Below, piece after piece: positions 3,051-61,003 of a stretch of DNA of 62,332 bases. The stretch is from Quinella sp. 1Q5. Lineage in GTDB: Bacteria > Bacillota > Negativicutes > Selenomonadales > Selenomonadaceae. A program made the position numbers and the translations under genes. A model generated the notes under the pieces. That model saw nothing but the letters and a program-made list of their open reading frames with translations, did no database searches and was not told the origin of the DNA. Location: contig JACXWG010000001.1 in the NCBI GenBank assembly GCA_014764605.1, positions 1 to 62,332 on the forward strand, read 5' to 3'. Numbering within the stretch: position 1 is the first letter of the stretch; each line of letters begins with the position of its first letter.

Positions 3051-3308
3051 ATGGACAAAGAACAACTCGCGCAAATGATAGCAGAGAAAATCGACGCGGC
3101 ACTTAAGGCTAGCGACCACCCGAAGAAGTTTTTTATCACGGCGAACGGACGCGGCGTCACGGACGGCGGCGACCTCTATAATGCAGTGCTTAAGGACGTG
3201 CTCGGCGTCGTGACAGTTGCCTTGACGGACATTTTCCAAACGTTAATGGCACCTGCACCCGCCGCGAAGCCTTCTGAAAAAATCACCAAGAACCAGGCAA
3301 AGAAATAA
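3051..3308 (+). CDS. Hypothetical small protein (85 aa)
   Basis: ATG lies 6 nt after GGGAGTG. Open frame with a terminator hairpin downstream. I recognise no motif. Confidence 0.55.
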   Translation: MDKEQLAQMIAEKIDAALKASDHPKKFFITANGRGVTDGGDLYNAVLKDVLGVVTVALTDIFQTLMAPAPAAKPSEKITKNQAKK

Positions 3309-3332
3309 TCGGCTCGAATTTGAAGACTTTGG

Positions 3333-3367
3333 GCGATTCCGTTCCGGGCGGAGTCGCTTTCCTTTTG
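3333..3367 (+). terminator. Intrinsic terminator just upstream of the lysC RBS
   Basis: 9-bp stem GCGATTCCG/CGGAGTCGC with a 7-nt loop, followed by TTTCCTTTT. Confidence 0.55.
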
Positions 3368-3400
3368 ATTATCTTGAGCTGTACGAAGGAGGATGGACGC

Positions 3401-4636
3401 ATGGCTCTGATTGTAAAGAAATTTGGCGGCTCTTCGGTTGCGACGACTGATAAAATTTTGGCGGTAGCGCAGAGAATCCTTTCCGAAAAGAAATCCGACG
3501 ATAAAATCGTCGTGGTGGTCTCGGCAATGGGCAAGACGACCGACGACTTGATAGCTTTGGCGGGCGGCATCGATACCCAACCTTACAAAGGAAATTATCT
3601 GCGGGAACTCGATATGCTCCTAACCACGGGCGAGCAAGTCTCGATTGCGTTGTTGGCTATGGCTTTTAAAAAGTTGGGGCAACCGGCGATTTCGTTGACG
3701 GGTGCGCAAGTGGGCATGAGGACAAATTCTGTTCACACCAAAGGCAGGATACTTGGAATCAAACCTAAGCGCGTGCATGACGAGCTTAACAAAGGTCAAG
3801 TCGTCGTAGTCGCTGGCTTTCAAGGTGCGGACAGGTTCGGCGACCCCGTGACATTGGGGCGCGGTGGCTCGGATACTTCTGCCGTGGCTTTGGCGGGCGC
3901 GTTGAAGGCTGACGAGTGCGAGATTTTCACTGACGTTGACGGCGTTTACTCGGCTGACCCACGCATTGTTAAGAACGCTCGCAAAATGAAAGAAATTACC
4001 TATGCCGAAATGTTGGAGATGGCTCGCCTCGGCGCGGGAGTTATGCAACCGCGTTCTGTTGAGATGGGGCAATTCTTCAACATGCCAATTCATGTTCGCT
4101 CGACCTTCACCAAGGAGGCGGGCACGATTATCAGGGAGGATTATACTTTGGAGGAAAAAGATTTTGAGATACGCGGCGTGGCTCATGATATGAAGGTTGC
4201 GAAGATTTCAGTTATCGGCGTGCCGAATAGTCCGGGCATTGCCCATACGCTTTTCCAGGCTCTCGCCGAGGCAAATATTTCTGTCGATATGATTGTTCAG
4301 AGCATACGCAACATCGACCGCAATATAAATGACATTGTCTTTACGATTAACCTTGACGACCTGCCCGAAGCAAAAAAGATTATCGGCGTGGCTAGCGAAA
4401 AAATTCATGCGGCGTCGGTTCTCGTCGAAGAGGACATGGCTAAGGTTTCAATCGTTGGGGCGGGCATGTTAGGCAGTCCGGGTTTTGCCGCTAGAATGTT
4501 TGGTGCACTCGCCCGCGCCGACGTGAACATTGACATTATCAGCACATCGGAGATTAGCGTTTCATGCCTCGTCAAAGGTTCGCAGGTGACCGAGGCAGTC
4601 AACAGCATTCATGATGAGTTCTTCCCAGACAGGTGA
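3401..4636 (+). CDS. lysC: Aspartate kinase
   Basis: MALIVKKFGGSSV...VVVSAMGKTTD kinase signature and two C-terminal ACT-like regions. ATG follows GAAGGAGGA. The upstream 27 codons of the track ORF are rejected. Confidence 0.93.
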   Translation: MALIVKKFGGSSVATTDKILAVAQRILSEKKSDDKIVVVVSAMGKTTDDLIALAGGIDTQPYKGNYLRELDMLLTTGEQVSIALLAMAFKKLGQPAISLTGAQVGMRTNSVHTKGRILGIKPKRVHDELNKGQVVVVAGFQGADRFGDPVTLGRGGSDTSAVALAGALKADECEIFTDVDGVYSADPRIVKNARKMKEITYAEMLEMARLGAGVMQPRSVEMGQFFNMPIHVRSTFTKEAGTIIREDYTLEEKDFEIRGVAHDMKVAKISVIGVPNSPGIAHTLFQALAEANISVDMIVQSIRNIDRNINDIVFTINLDDLPEAKKIIGVASEKIHAASVLVEEDMAKVSIVGAGMLGSPGFAARMFGALARADVNIDIISTSEISVSCLVKGSQVTEAVNSIHDEFFPDR

Positions 4637-14678: not shown

Positions 14679-14713
14679 AGAGCCGTTCGCGATTGAGCGG
14701 CTCTGATTTTTTT
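14679..14713. terminator. Bidirectional intrinsic terminator
   Basis: AGAGCCGTTC/GAGCGGCTCT stem. A T-run follows on the plus strand, and TTTTCTTTT follows on the minus strand. Confidence 0.7.
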
Positions 14714-14725
14714 GCAAAGCTTTAA

Positions 14726-14806
14726 TCAATAGATGTTGTGCTTAACGCGGTCGTGTTCTTCCGACTTCTTAGCGTCGTTCCAACGGTCTGTCGTGCCGAC
14801 CAGATA
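14726..14806 (-). CDS. Distal coding segment (26 codons) of the NrdD-like glycyl-radical mini-protein
   Basis: Translates to YLVGTTDRWNDAKKSEEHDRVKHNIY*. This continues the RRITG ending of the upstream ORF into the class III RNR glycyl-radical tail pattern G-Y-L-x-G...N-x-x-K-x-x-E...R-V-K-H. Confidence 0.5.
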   Translation of the reverse strand, partial: YLVGTTDRWNDAKKSEEHDRVKHNIY

Positions 14807-15051
14807 CATTTTGTTATCGCCGAGCTTTTTATCTCGACTTCTGCAAGTCGCCCTGCAGTTCAGCATATCTTTTCACGCATTGCCGCAAGCGTGGCGCGGT
14901 CTCGTGGGCAGATTATTTCACTGCCTATGCGTTGCGGCTGGCTTAAAGCCTTCACCTCTGATTATCTCAATGAGACTTCCCAGATTTTTACCGCGCTGAT
15001 AATCCGTCGTCTTCATGCGGCTTGACGGCGGACGGCTATCCTTTATCAGGC
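14807..15051 (-). other. 245-nt structured intervening sequence, candidate group I intron
   Basis: Preceded by U and ends in G. Nt 11-18 (GGAUAGCC) are complementary to the exon junction GGU|UAUCU. AAGAUAU followed by GCUG can pair with CAGC (P7-like). A-rich joiners flank the UCUG/CAGA and GUCUC/GAGAU helices. Several further hairpins are present. It contains no long ORF. Confidence 0.45.
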
Positions 15052-15255
15052 ACCTGTGATGCGGCGGATACGTTCAAACTTCTCGCCGCGTGCCGTGTAG
15101 CTGACATCAACCATACCGTCATCACACAGCTTAACATTAATCGTCTTTACCGGCATTGAGACCCGCCCGCGAACGTAAGCAACGTAATTGGCTGCCTCTT
15201 CGCGGGTGGCGTCGTCTATGCCAGCAAAGTTTACCTTAACGCCGTCAACAATCAT
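15046..15255 (-). CDS. Small protein ending in an NrdD-like RRITG glycyl-radical half-motif (proximal coding segment 15052-15255 plus 2 read-through codons)
   Basis: ATG lies 9 nt after GAGGAAG and immediately after the mscS stop. The ORF ends ...GEKFERIRRITG-A-stop. Confidence 0.7.
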   Translation of the reverse strand: MIVDGVKVNFAGIDDATREEAANYVAYVRGRVSMPVKTINVKLCDDGMVDVSYTARGEKFERIRRITGA

Positions 15256-15261
15256 AAGCAA

Positions 15262-16362
15262 TCACTTCCTCAAGTCAATTTTTGTATCATCAGGCAAATC
15301 AAGCGTGCGAATCGGGAACGGAATGTTAATGCCCTCTTCGCGATAACGCTTGGTAATCGCCTTAATGAATTCGTGCTTAAGAAGATACTGATTAGTAAAG
15401 GTTTGGACGTGCATAACCGCGTTGAAGTCAATCGACGAATCATTGAAAGCTTGATAGCGGACAACGGGCGCAAGTTTGTTCCTGTCGACGCCTTCGGAAT
15501 CAAAACGCGGTTCGTAGCCGTCAATCTTAATCTGAAGTTCGCGGGCAACTTCCACAGTCACGCGCTCCACTTGCTCAAGGTCGCTTTCATAACCGACGCC
15601 GATAGGAACGACAACGACAATATCATCGCGGGGTTGAGAGAAATTCGACGTAACGGCATTAGCGATAACCTTGTTAGGAATGACCACGACGCTACCTTCA
15701 TTAGCGGGCATGACCGTAATAAAACGCCAGTTGATGTCGATAACTTTGCCTTCGTCGCCGGTTGAAAGTTTAATGTAGTCGTTAACGCGCAGTTGCTTAG
15801 AAATGATGAGTTGCAATCCAGAGAAAATATTCTCCAAGGTCTCGCGAACACCGAAGGCAACCGCCATACCGCCGACACCCATTGCCGCCATAATCGGGGC
15901 TATCGAAATGTTGAAGTAATCCAGAATGACTAGCGCACCCGACGCATAAATTGCCACACGGAAAATCGTATCAAGTAGCGTCGATTGAGTCATATCGCTT
16001 GAGCCAGAAAACTTCATGCGGATAAAGCCCGATAACGTCCGCTCACAAACCCGCGTTATAGAAAAGACAATCATCGCGAACAAGACGTAGGAGAAAATCT
16101 TTTCGAGACCGGCGGGCATGTTGGAGGTCGTGACGCTCCAATAAAGCCCAATCACAATGCAAAGGTAAATCGGTACACCCTTCATCGCACGGAAGAAGAT
16201 TTCAAATATCTCCGAGTCGCTCGCCTTAACGCGTCCTTCCATTTTGCTTTGAATAAATCTGTTCAGCATTACGCCGAAACATAACGAGACGAACAATATA
16301 CACGCTGGGACAATGAGCTTTTCTCCCAATGCCAGCCAATCAATATTTTGAAGATAATCCAA
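15262..16362 (-). CDS. mscS: Mechanosensitive ion channel, MscS family
   Basis: TM helices followed by the conserved ...NIFSGLQLIISKQLRVNDYIKL...G.V.DI..R beta-domain. TTG start lies 6 nt after AAGAGGTG. The track's GTG at 16371 overlaps the RBS. Confidence 0.88.
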   Translation of the reverse strand: MDYLQNIDWLALGEKLIVPACILFVSLCFGVMLNRFIQSKMEGRVKASDSEIFEIFFRAMKGVPIYLCIVIGLYWSVTTSNMPAGLEKIFSYVLFAMIVFSITRVCERTLSGFIRMKFSGSSDMTQSTLLDTIFRVAIYASGALVILDYFNISIAPIMAAMGVGGMAVAFGVRETLENIFSGLQLIISKQLRVNDYIKLSTGDEGKVIDINWRFITVMPANEGSVVVIPNKVIANAVTSNFSQPRDDIVVVVPIGVGYESDLEQVERVTVEVARELQIKIDGYEPRFDSEGVDRNKLAPVVRYQAFNDSSIDFNAVMHVQTFTNQYLLKHEFIKAITKRYREEGINIPFPIRTLDLPDDTKIDLRK

Positions 16363-16428
16363 ACAAAACACCTCTTACTTGAAAAAAATTTTTACAGCCG
16401 ATATATTAAACGCAAGGAGTTGATAGAA

Positions 16429-16935
16429 ATGATTCTAATCGAAGGAAAGAGATTGCGTTTAAGGCGTGCGAACGTAACGGACTTAGGGTACATCATGGCG
16501 TTACAATACGCGCCAGAGAACTTGAAATTCATCGTGCCGTTCAGCGAAGAGTATCACCGCGAGATTATCGACTCGGACGGCTTGGAAAAGTTGGACGTGA
16601 TTGTTGAGGAGATTGACACGGGGCAAGCCGTCGGATATTTCATGCTCCGCGAGATGGATTCGCCGTTCATTGAGTTTACCCACGTCATCATTGGGCGCAA
16701 GGGGCTGGGCTACGGGCGCGAGGCTTTGAACCTTCTGCTTGAGTGGACGTTCAAAGTTAGGAATTATCATCGCGTTTGGATTGACTGCAAGGAATACAAT
16801 TCAATCGCCCTGCACCTTTACGAGAGTTTGGGCTTTGTGCGTGAAGGCGTCCTGCGTGAAATCATTTTAACCGATGGCGTCTGGGAAAACTTAATCGTGC
16901 TTGGAATGCTTGACCGCGAATACTTCAGCCATTAA
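16429..16935 (+). CDS. GNAT family N-acetyltransferase (RimJ/RimL-like)
   Basis: LRLRRANVTD...IGRKGLGYGREAL...LGF is an acetyl-CoA binding pattern. ATG follows AAGGAG. Confidence 0.85.
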   Translation: MILIEGKRLRLRRANVTDLGYIMALQYAPENLKFIVPFSEEYHREIIDSDGLEKLDVIVEEIDTGQAVGYFMLREMDSPFIEFTHVIIGRKGLGYGREALNLLLEWTFKVRNYHRVWIDCKEYNSIALHLYESLGFVREGVLREIILTDGVWENLIVLGMLDREYFSH

Positions 16936-16939
16936 CCGA

Positions 16940-16976
16940 AAAAATTATCCCCCGCACTCAGCGAGGGATTTTTATT
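16940..16976. terminator. Bidirectional intrinsic terminator
   Basis: ATCCCCCGC/GCGAGGGAT stem flanked by an A-run and a T-run, between convergent genes. Confidence 0.6.
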
Positions 16977-16989
16977 ACGTTTAAGAAGT

Positions 16990-17418
16990 TTACACAGCCT
17001 TAGCCAAATCCTCGCCGAGTTTGCGGCACTCTTCAAGGACAGTATCATCAGGAGCATTTTCAGCAATCACGGAGCCGACGAATTTCGCGCCCGCCTCTTT
17101 AGTGCGTTCAGACCAATTTTCCATCCAAATGCCGCCGCCCCAGCCATAGGAACCGAACAGCCCGACGGGTACGCCGTTAAGTTTGGTCTCGGCTTCGGCG
17201 AAGAACGGCTCAAAGGAATCCTCTTCCAAAACCTCATCGCCCATTGCCGGGCAACCGAACAGGAAACCGTTATAATCCGCCATGTCAGATGCGTTGAAGT
17301 CGTCTACCTGGAAAATCTCGACATCTGCATCCGCCGCTTTTGCGCCTTCTGCTACGGCGTTTGCCATTTCCTCAGTATTGCCAGTGCCGCTCCAAAACAC
17401 GACCGCGATTTTACTCAT
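16990..17418 (-). CDS. Flavodoxin (short-chain)
   Basis: KIAVVFWSGTGNTEEMA FMN-phosphate loop. About 142 aa. Confidence 0.92.
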   Translation of the reverse strand: MSKIAVVFWSGTGNTEEMANAVAEGAKAADADVEIFQVDDFNASDMADYNGFLFGCPAMGDEVLEEDSFEPFFAEAETKLNGVPVGLFGSYGWGGGIWMENWSERTKEAGAKFVGSVIAENAPDDTVLEECRKLGEDLAKAV

Positions 17419-17458
17419 CAAGAATCGCCTCCAAAAATTTTACTCTACAAACGCGCAC

Positions 17459-39506: not shown

Positions 39507-40382
39507 ATGAAACTCAAGAAGATTGCTAAGGTTCTGTTGTCCTGCTTGGTGGCGGGCGCGTTGTTCACGGGTTGCGGCGGCGGAGATAAGCCAGCTAATG
39601 ACAGCGGCGATAAACCGGCGGCTTCCACGGGCAATGTTAAGCTCGGCATGATTTCTCATCTCAACGTTACCGAACAGAAAATGGACGAGATTTTAAAGAT
39701 GGTCGAGGAAGAATCCAAAGTCCCGCTTACCAATTTCACAGTCACTTACTACGACAACTTAAAGCTCATGCAAATGGGTATCGAGTCGGGTAGCGTCGAC
39801 CAGATAAGCCTTTATACCAGCGTTGCAGATTACGTTATCGCCAACAACGACAAATACGAGAAAGTAAGCGACCTGACGCTGAAGAATCTTTCCGATACCT
39901 TCTGCTTCGCCGTGCGCAAAGACGACGCCGCCTTGAAAGCCGACCTCGACAAAGCTCTTGACGAGATGAAGGCTGACGGCTCTCTTGATAAGCTCGCTAA
40001 GGAATACATCACCGACGTTGATAAGGGAACGGCTCCGCCCGCGATTGAAATTCCCATGACCGAAGGCGCACAGACGATTAAAGTTGGTGTGACGGGCGAC
40101 CTTCCGCCGCTTGACTATGTGAGCGCGGACGGTAAAGCTGCTGGGTTCAATACCGCCCTGCTTGCAGAAGTCGCTAAACGTTCGGGCAAGAATATCGAAA
40201 TCGTAGACATTGACAGCGGCGCACGTGCGGCGGCTTTGAGTTCCGGGCAAATCGACGTTATCTTCTGGGTTGTCGTTCCGACCGCAGGTAAGGTTCGCGC
40301 CGACATTGACAAGCCCGAAGGCGTCGAGCTCAGCAATCCTTACTTCAAAGACAATGTTGAGCATCTCAAGCTTAAAAAATAA
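39507..40382 (+). CDS. Amino-acid ABC substrate-binding lipoprotein, paralog 2 (apparently circularly permuted PBP type II)
   Basis: Lipobox LFTGC. Motif order is reversed relative to GlnH-like proteins (see findings). Confidence 0.85.
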   Translation: MKLKKIAKVLLSCLVAGALFTGCGGGDKPANDSGDKPAASTGNVKLGMISHLNVTEQKMDEILKMVEEESKVPLTNFTVTYYDNLKLMQMGIESGSVDQISLYTSVADYVIANNDKYEKVSDLTLKNLSDTFCFAVRKDDAALKADLDKALDEMKADGSLDKLAKEYITDVDKGTAPPAIEIPMTEGAQTIKVGVTGDLPPLDYVSADGKAAGFNTALLAEVAKRSGKNIEIVDIDSGARAAALSSGQIDVIFWVVVPTAGKVRADIDKPEGVELSNPYFKDNVEHLKLKK

Positions 40383-40391
40383 GGTGACACT

Positions 40392-41246
40392 ATGAAAAAA
40401 GTTTTTACGTTACTAATGCTGATAACGCTATTGATGACAGGTTGCGGCGGCTCTCAAGGAAACGACGCTAAGAAAGATTCCGACACAGGCAAGATTAAGA
40501 TTGGTATGATAACTCGTCTGAACGCAAGCGAAGAAAGCTTCGGCGAATTCATGAAGAAGGTTGAGGATACCCTAGACGTCAAGATTTCTTCGCACGTGCC
40601 AGTTTTCTTCGACAACCTAAACGCAATGCAGATGGCATTGCAGACAAAGCAAATCGACGAGATAAGCACTTATCGAAGCGTGGCGCGTTACATGATTGCT
40701 AAGGACAAACGCTACCAGGTGCTAAAGGATCATTCGCTGGAGTTCATTGATTCGTTCTGCTTTGCCTTGCGCGACGACGAGACCGAGCTTAGAGACTCTT
40801 TGAACAAGGTTATTAAGGAAATGCAATCGGATGGTACACTTGACCGCTTGACAAAAGAATACATAACGGACATTAACGCCGAGACTGACCCGCCCGCAGT
40901 GGATTTGCCGCACTTCGACAGCGCACAGACGATTAAAGTTGCCGTGACGGGTGACCTGCCGCCTTTGGACTTCGTGAGCACGGAAGGTAAGCCAGAAGGT
41001 TTTAATACGGCTGTCCTCGCGGAGATTGGCAAACGCATGTTAAAGAATATTGAGCTTGTCAAAATCGACAGCGGCGCACGTGCGGCGGCTTTGACTTCTG
41101 GACAAGTCGACGTTGTTTTTTGGGCGATTGTTCCTGTCAGCGAGATTATCCCGACCGACAGCGACAAGCCTAACGGCGTCATTTTGACGGAGCCTTACTT
41201 CAAGGATAAGATTGTTCACATGACTTTTAAAGACGAAGAGAAATAA
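40392..41246 (+). CDS. Amino-acid ABC substrate-binding lipoprotein, paralog 3
   Basis: Lipobox LMTGC. Colinear with paralog 2. Confidence 0.85.
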   Translation: MKKVFTLLMLITLLMTGCGGSQGNDAKKDSDTGKIKIGMITRLNASEESFGEFMKKVEDTLDVKISSHVPVFFDNLNAMQMALQTKQIDEISTYRSVARYMIAKDKRYQVLKDHSLEFIDSFCFALRDDETELRDSLNKVIKEMQSDGTLDRLTKEYITDINAETDPPAVDLPHFDSAQTIKVAVTGDLPPLDFVSTEGKPEGFNTAVLAEIGKRMLKNIELVKIDSGARAAALTSGQVDVVFWAIVPVSEIIPTDSDKPNGVILTEPYFKDKIVHMTFKDEEK

Positions 41247-60927: not shown

Positions 60928-61003
60928 TGGAGCCGGCTAAGGGACTCGAACCTTCGACCTGCGCATTACGAATGCGCTGCTCTACCAACTGAGCTAAGCC
61001 GGC
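60928..61003 (-). tRNA. tRNA-Thr (anticodon CGU)
   Basis: Sequence: GCCGGCT TA GCTC AGTTGGTA GAGC A GCGCA TTCGTAA TGCGC AGGTC GAAGG TTCGAGT CCCTT AGCCGGC T CCA. Perfect cloverleaf with an encoded CCA. Confidence 0.95.

Follow-up and report, generated by a model that had tools for sequence, protein, structure and literature searches.

A probable group I intron without an open reading frame interrupts a small nrdD-like gene of Quinella sp. 1Q5 at its glycyl-radical motif

Analysis of a 62,332-nucleotide (nt) stretch of the Quinella sp. 1Q5 genome (contig JACXWG010000001.1, positions 1 to 62,332; hereafter the window) revealed a small gene, mini-nrdD, whose product ends in a sequence resembling the C terminus of the class III ribonucleotide reductase (RNR) NrdD, and which is split on the minus strand, exactly between a glycine and a tyrosine codon, by an insert of 245 nt. 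The insert, at positions 15051–14807, is very probably a group I intron that contains no open reading frame (ORF). This interpretation is drawn from the presence or absence of the insert at the same junction in related genes, the covarying RNA core of the insert, a second intron, bearing an HNH endonuclease, at the identical site, and the exact ligation of the exons in a metatranscriptome contig from a sister species. These findings bear out the original prediction, made from the sequence of the window, that a group I intron splits the gene at this point.

Exon 1 of mini-nrdD (15052–15255, minus strand) comprises 68 codons, beginning with ATG at 15255–15253 and ending in ...RIRRITG with the glycine codon GGU, and has full-length homologues of 95 residues at 94% identity. 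Without splicing, the ORF would extend over 15255–15046 and terminate as ...GEKFERIRRITG-A-stop. Exon 2 (14726–14806, minus strand) lies in a different reading frame from exon 1 and encodes YLVGTTDRWNDAKKSEEHDRVKHNIY followed by a stop codon. Removal of the 245-nt insert joins the 204 nt of exon 1 to the 81 nt of exon 2 in phase, as had been proposed, and yields a product of 94 residues. Exon 1 searched alone against Pfam and NCBIfam gave no match; only the joined product matched the Pfam family NRDD (PF13597, E = 2e-8, residues 58–91), and three NCBIfam NrdD models also matched it, at the extreme C termini of the models. A profile of the mini-NrdD family aligned residues 49–91 with residues 696–738 of the 743-residue NrdD 8p23_A (E = 3e-9), a solved NrdD structure in which the aligned stretch reads ...RITGYLVGTTDRWN...HDRVTH. 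Judged by these alignments, the joined tail is the glycyl-radical motif of class III RNRs, the signature that the original prediction had recognized. Since this motif is restored by joining the exons, the split gene is real and no chance juxtaposition. The final three bases of the intron (14807–14809, minus strand) read AUG, in frame with exon 2, with the potential for a 27-residue peptide. Stand-alone translation of exon 2 from this codon was rejected because the AUG is not conserved, relatives having UUG or AAG.

The junction was compared across 80 Selenomonadaceae loci drawn from one-genome-per-species contigs. The Gly and Tyr codons are contiguous in 66 of them, the uninterrupted relatives that the original prediction had proposed looking for, and the remaining 14 are interrupted, all exactly at GGN|TAT. 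Among the loci with at least 79% protein identity (the close clade), 14 are interrupted versus about seven uninterrupted. A protein search returned uninterrupted homologues of 95 residues, at up to 94% identity, and many proteins of 68–78 residues that each end in ...RRITG plus unrelated residues. Two classes of insert occupy the junction, class A of 237–249 nt, to which the window intron belongs, and class B of 719–746 nt. The eight class A copies share 78–97% pairwise identity, and a pattern scan of metagenomes, in which 6 of 120 matches were true and most were chance, added six further copies, all within mini-nrdD genes. Two of the metagenome copies reside in hosts with a highly divergent exon 1, which points to horizontal spread. 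A mini-nrdD gene is also carried by the phage contig L104, where it is interrupted at the same site.

Neither exon contains a frameshift or a stop, and the 15 spliced products are all intact. Across the 15 interrupted loci, 19 of the 23 codons of exon 2 differ at the DNA level but only one amino acid changes. Such a pattern requires translation of exon 2 in the frame of exon 1, and it indicates strong purifying selection on exon 2 in the interrupted copies. The locus could otherwise be seen as an ordinary decayed pseudogene, the alternative named in the original prediction, or as a non-intron mobile insertion whose filler lacks an RNA function, and the lack of any Rfam family match would be in keeping with this. 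We regard such an explanation as extremely improbable, given that both exons are undamaged, that all 22 copies share the identical, in-phase junction, that the insert of a sister species appears to be precisely removed in RNA, and that the insert is conserved with RNA-type covariation in 21 bacterial and phage sequences.

These 21 sequences, eight of class A and 13 from phages, formed the alignment on which the secondary structure was assessed. A group I-type structure left 87% of cells paired, compared with 70% in column shuffles (0 of 500 as high) and 32–43% when the partners were slid. Covariation supports P2 to P9.1, including the P3/P7 pseudoknot, with P3, P4, P7, and P8 being 100% paired and showing many compensatory changes. 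The window copy retains 58 of the 59 modelled pairs, and an energy-only fold of the window intron returned P2, P3, P4, P5, P6, P7.1, P8, P9, and P9.1 (z = -2.3). The predicted architecture, P1-P2-P3-P4-P5-P6-P7-P7.1-P3'-P8-P7'-P9-P9.1, is subgroup-IA-like, and the intron was filed without a subgroup. P7.1 is a trait of subgroup IA, and introns of subgroup IA2 have two extra hairpins, P7.1 and P7.2, between P7 and P3'; in the window intron P7.1 is present and the place of P7.2 is taken by a single-stranded CACGAGA.

All elements lie on the minus strand, and nucleotide p of the intron corresponds to window coordinate 15052 - p. Hairpin P2 (nt 20–28/41–49; 15003–15032) has compensatory changes in L030, L014, L091, L093, and L098. 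The 5' strand of P3, GCGCGG (nt 56–61; 14991–14996), pairs with the 3' strand CCGCGC (nt 153–158; 14894–14899), with double changes at three pairs. P4 (nt 69–72/91–94), in which a U-A pair becomes G-C in eight sequences, encloses P5 (nt 76–80/84–88) and is accompanied by the A-rich joining segments J3/4 and J4/5 (together 14958–14983). P6 (14936–14956) is composed of an outer helix (nt 96–98/114–116) and an inner helix (nt 102–105/109–112), and in the outer helix the GG/CC and CC/GG forms are exchanged between the window clade and the phage relatives. P7 is built from the 5' strand A-(C bulge)-GCAUA (nt 120–126; 14926–14932) and the 3' strand UAUGCU (nt 185–190; 14862–14867), the latter placed by covariation and by the RF00028 alignment of the phage T4 intron sunY. 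Here A120 and G122–A126 pair with U185–U190 and C121 is bulged; A120-U190 is replaced by G-C in five sequences with zero mispairs, and G122-C189 is presumed to be the guanosine-binding pair. Hairpin P7.1 (nt 127–131/141–145; 14907–14925), between P7 and P3', is ~99% paired with double changes in four of its five pairs, and hairpin P8 (nt 159–163/174–178; 14874–14893) has double changes in all five.

The joining segment J8/7, AAAAGA (14868–14873), is invariant in the 21 sequences and falls, in the alignment of sunY, on the RF00028 consensus gAAGAUAUAGUC; the S-element-like AAGAUAU at nt 181–187, singled out in the original prediction, runs from J8/7 into P7. Hairpin P9 (nt 194–211; 14841–14858), obtained from the thermodynamic fold, is capped by the GNRA loop GCGA, for which relatives have GAAA or GUAA, and hairpin P9.1 (nt 214–233; 14819–14838), found by covariation, carries the conserved loop AUAAAAAG. 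The 3'-terminal guanosine (omega G; 14807) is a G in 16 of 16 genome or viral copies and in six of six metagenome copies. Covariation confirms every individual hairpin proposed earlier; they are P4, P5, P7.1, P8, P9, and P9.1. The two long-range pairings proposed with them were each right about one strand: GCGG at nt 58–61 is indeed part of P3 and GCUG at nt 188–191 belongs to P7, but their suggested partners (CCGC at nt 115–118 and CAGC at nt 112–115) were rejected because they lie in P6 and do not covary, the actual partners being nt 153–158 for nt 56–61 and nt 120–126 for P7. The P2 loop GCCGC (nt 31–35; 15017–15021) is complementary to the P8 loop GCGGC (nt 166–170; 14882–14886), and this complementarity covaries in relatives (CCCAU/AUGGG, GUCGCU/AGCGAC, and AUCAUC/GAUGAU, including L091, L093, L098, and L104), suggesting that the two loops may form a kissing-loop tertiary contact.

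The internal guide sequence GGAUAGCC (nt 11–18; 15034–15041) is complementary to the ligated junction GGU|UAUCU, as had been proposed. Its GCC with exon GGU makes up a P1 of 3 bp, including the G16•U-1 wobble, and its GGAUA with UAUCU of exon 2 makes up a P10 of 5 bp; P10 is 4–7 bp in most copies, and covariation between guide and exon is seen in class B and in L021. The insert follows a U and ends in a G, two further points on which the original prediction was correct. The U•G wobble at the 5' splice site of group I introns is near-universal and usually treated as invariant. A U at -1 was found in 16 of the 22 copies, among them the window's, and in 10 of 15 interrupted genes compared with 13 of 66 uninterrupted genes (Fisher p = 7e-4), the uninterrupted ones having mostly GGC. 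In three of the copies that depart from this rule (L014, L019, and L257) a C at -1 pairs with the guide G, and L021 has a G at -1 whose partner is a compensating guide C; in L025 and L027 the base at -1, A or C, is unpaired or mispaired.

RNA evidence for splicing comes from L021 (DJWY01000025.1), a locus of Selenomonadales UBA7018 whose class A intron (3205–3441, 237 nt) is 84% identical to that of the window. The exact spliced product of L021 is encoded in the protein collection by a single contig, Logan SRR873464_83777 (L113), and Shi et al. (2014; PMC4158751) list SRR873459–SRR873465 as sheep-rumen metatranscriptome runs. Compared with L021 over 1,485 nt, L113 shows 100.000% identity, in flanks of 856 nt before and 630 nt after the intron site, and exactly the 237-nt intron is absent from it. 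The intron-containing form of L021 is present at 100% in DNA assemblies of the same study, namely an AUXO01 whole-genome shotgun contig, the SRR873609 Logan assembly, in which a metagenome contig covers both exons, and a SHIW14 scaffold; the DNA contigs compared with L113 were L123, L125, and L122. R1, a covariance model of the intron 3' domain built from this family, detected the intron in the DNA contig, whereas the RNA contig gave no match. By comparison, the flanks of intron-less DNA alleles encoding the L019 spliced product are only ~96% identical. The perfect identity of the L113 flanks argues for the same strain, and hence RNA splicing; the exons of the L021 copy were apparently ligated exactly in vivo. 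The equivalent of the spliced junction sought in the original prediction was seen in the sister species, the window's own product being absent from the protein collection. Uninterrupted contigs for L011 and L019 were rejected as evidence of splicing, as they represent divergent DNA alleles with flanks of 88–97% identity, and for 12 of the 15 copies the protein collection contains no exact spliced product.

L113 shows that the insert is absent and not how it was removed, so that site-specific DNA excision in part of the population, or ribosomes that bypass the 245 nt, might be invoked in place of splicing. Neither a recombinase nor direct repeats flank the insert, however, and DNA assemblies from the same samples carry it, with the insert-less form found only in the RNA run. 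Bypassing, for its part, would keep the insert in the RNA, and the RNA architecture is that of a ribozyme. Both routes are accordingly considered very improbable.

Several observations weigh against the interpretation as a group I intron. P1 is only 3 bp long in the window, as the original prediction had conceded, and 6 of the 22 copies, including the RNA-supported L021, have no U at -1. The spliced product of the window copy was not found in the protein collection, nor was a transcript for the window organism. L113 itself could conceivably derive from a transcribed intron-less allele that is absent from the DNA assemblies. Furthermore, the Rfam group I model RF00028 matched neither the window nor any of 14 related loci nor a class B locus at E ≤ 10, scans of these regions yielding chance-level matches only, and R1 did not match T4 sunY. 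A match to RF00028 serves detection and does not define a group I intron. The Rfam scan had been put forward as a test on which the intron could be dismissed, yet its negative outcome would have led to the wrongful rejection of the intron: the same model scores T4 sunY at 105 bits, and that it finds sunY and misses this family speaks for real divergence of the family rather than general blindness of the model. R1 recovered neither sunY nor class B, and since it misses sunY, homology to sunY rests on similarity judged by eye.

Some of these points would be expected if the window held a group I relic that no longer splices, leaving the gene dead or producing only the 69-residue product of exon 1. 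The short P1, the missing transcript, and the loss of the U•G wobble in some relatives fit this explanation, as does the fact that the window intron (14807–15051) contains no ORF and encodes no homing endonuclease, the latter having been noted in the original prediction. The window copy nevertheless keeps 58 of 59 modelled pairs and has the U•G pair, omega G, and P10 in place, exon 2 is intact and under purifying selection across the interrupted copies, and a copy 84% identical to it was apparently spliced in vivo. A relic is thus unlikely, with a small probability left to it.

Collectively, these data suggest how a splicing-competent group I intron would act in the window. The mscS/mini-nrdD transcript would fold such that the guide sequence pairs with the last three bases of exon 1, GGU, the U•G wobble falling where cleavage occurs, and with the initial five bases of exon 2. 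An external guanosine would then attack after GGU, and the terminal G245 would subsequently enter the guanosine site in P7, allowing the exons to be ligated as GGU|UAU. Ligation would restore ...RRITG-YLVG... and give the 94-residue protein with the class III RNR glycyl-radical tail. The guanosine-dependent chemistry and the splicing of the window's own copy are inferred. The intron probably entered mini-nrdD via homing or recombination.

Class B inserts were found at the exact Gly|Tyr junction in other Selenomonadaceae (L011, L023, L025, L026 (3205–3925), L027, L029, and L035). They contain an ORF of ~200 residues, located in the P6 loop, that matches HNH_3 (E = 7e-13 and 5e-14) and, weakly, NUMOD4. 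Class B is without P2 or P9 and has an unusual, covarying extra hairpin between P3 and P4. Its core is 92.6% paired versus 76.6% in shuffles, with compensatory changes in 15 pairs, and includes canonical R/S-like elements (GUAGAGACUG ... AAGGAACAGUCC). A class B core pattern with 16 specified bases matched more than 120 viral contigs, estimated to be no more than chance, and was discarded.

A two-block class A pattern (CACGAGACC ... AAAGATATGC), which occurs once in the window with zero occurrences expected by chance, identified 23 true relatives on phage contigs in IMG/VR, L104 among them. R1 matches window positions 14807–14935 at 136 bits and the phage relatives at 81–138 bits. It also finds unannotated copies in two GenBank phages, Streptococcus phage phiJH1301-1 and the crAss-like phage cr7_1. 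In phiJH1301-1 (L247, KX077891.1 at ~30.7–31.0 kb) the intron splits the tape-measure gene into two coding sequences (CDS), and in cr7_1 (L248, NC_055895.1 at ~100.0 kb) it lies just after the annotated CDS of the terminase large subunit. When GenBank phages were searched by blastn with the intron, the match was confined to its 3' 70 nt and to three records, all unannotated. The phage members share a common core sequence and covarying helices with the window intron, and by these features the latter belongs to a widespread phage-borne family. They differ from it in their host genes (tape measure, near terminase, and others), in that some have ORFs or larger inserts in P5 or P6, and in a J3/4 of UAUUAA versus UAAAAA and the inverted outer P6 helix. 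Two phage contigs contain two copies each (L100, 920–1088 and 1374–1542; L102, 9827–9948 and 10788–10915), spaced a few hundred bases from each other and presumably twin introns of a single gene or of adjacent genes. Elsewhere in the window, R1 gave a weak match at 40333–40444 (plus strand; 17.6 bits, E = 0.22) that is most likely due to chance, and the sole Rfam match at gathering level in the whole window was a tRNA gene at 60931–61003 (minus strand).

Among known systems, the T4 nrdD intron (sunY, group IA2) is likewise of group I and likewise interrupts a gene of the class III RNR kind. It resembles the window intron in having the extra hairpin P7.1 after P7 and a P7 with a bulged base followed by a G-C pair; sunY P7, CAACGACUA, and that of the window, CAACGCAUA, have the same geometry by eye in the RF00028 alignment, and the J8/7-P7'-P9 segments are nearly the same (UGAAGAUAUAGUCUGAACUGCAUGGUGACAUGCAG in T4 and UGAAAAGAUAUGCUGAACUGCAGGGCGACUUGCAG in the window). 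In contrast, the T4 intron contains P7.2 and the ORF of I-TevII (GIY-YIG) and is inserted near codon 172–181 of 605, not at Gly580. The parallel with T4 drawn in the original prediction thus holds for the host gene and not for the position, and because the T4 intron lies far from Gly580, the glycine site is a separate insertion site and a parallel case. Phage group I introns of the I-HmuI/I-TwoI type bear HNH endonucleases; class B resembles them in its HNH ORF and its canonical R/S-like elements, and the window intron differs from them in having no endonuclease. Group I introns in protein-coding genes of bacterial chromosomes include those in Bacillus recA and nrdE and in the Geobacillus flagellin gene. 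These are similar in occupying, with or without an endonuclease gene, a conserved motif of a bacterial gene with no obvious prophage context, and differ in host gene and clade; the present case, from rumen Selenomonadaceae, has two alternative introns at one site and high occupancy in the close clade.

The mini-nrdD gene starts 7 nt past the stop codon of the MscS-family gene directly upstream (15262–16371), a spacing that suggests co-transcription. The order flavodoxin-GNAT acetyltransferase-MscS-mini-nrdD (window 15262–17421) recurs in relatives, including L120 and L122. The terminator that had been predicted after exon 2 corresponds to a bidirectional hairpin at 14679–14704, between mini-nrdD and a convergent DUF3298 gene. 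The mini-NrdD family is unnamed and widespread, with 425 clusters at 50% identity (E ≤ 1e-10), mostly of 85–125 residues; in longer matches the similarity to NRDD is confined to the last 35 residues. Members carry the final ~43 residues of NrdD, radical glycine included, behind their N-terminal domain. AlphaFold gave a moderate model of the host protein (pLDDT, the predicted local distance difference test score, 66), which places the N-terminal 64 residues in a beta-alpha-beta-beta-beta domain at moderate confidence and predicts the glycyl tail at low confidence. A fold search of the PDB with this model produced no significant match.

GrcA/YfiD is an autonomous glycyl-radical spare part of pyruvate formate-lyase (PFL). 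Mini-NrdD is comparable in being a small, stand-alone protein whose C terminus copies the glycyl-radical motif of a large enzyme, and differs in that the motif is that of NrdD and not of PFL and in that its N-terminal 64 residues are a separate predicted domain for which no relative was found. According to a 2026 review (PMC13450708), formate lyases are the only enzymes for which spare-part proteins are known. A role of mini-NrdD as a spare part of class III RNR is an attractive possibility. It is conceivable, though doubtful as a whole, that the host protein of ~95 residues is such a spare part, that its production depends on an intron at the radical glycine, and that L021, L014, and L019 splice through a Watson-Crick pair at the 5' site.

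The insert is of a kind already known, being a probable group I intron that occupies a catalytic motif of an RNR-family gene; to this are added an allelic series, two introns at one site, RNA evidence, a family invisible to Rfam, non-canonical splice-site pairs, and an uncharacterised host protein. Few group I introns are documented in protein-coding genes of bacterial chromosomes, and this case is a well-documented addition that provides natural intron-plus and intron-minus alleles together with two competing introns at a single site. The phage relatives constitute a sizeable intron family that is missed by the standard Rfam model and is unannotated in GenBank phage genomes, where genes are left split. 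If the RNA evidence for L021 holds, splicing of this intron is compatible with a Watson-Crick pair where cleavage occurs, and the non-wobble copies, one of them apparently spliced in vivo, offer a natural test of the U•G rule. Finally, the stand-alone NrdD tail makes it testable whether anaerobic RNR has a GrcA-like part for the repair of oxygen damage.

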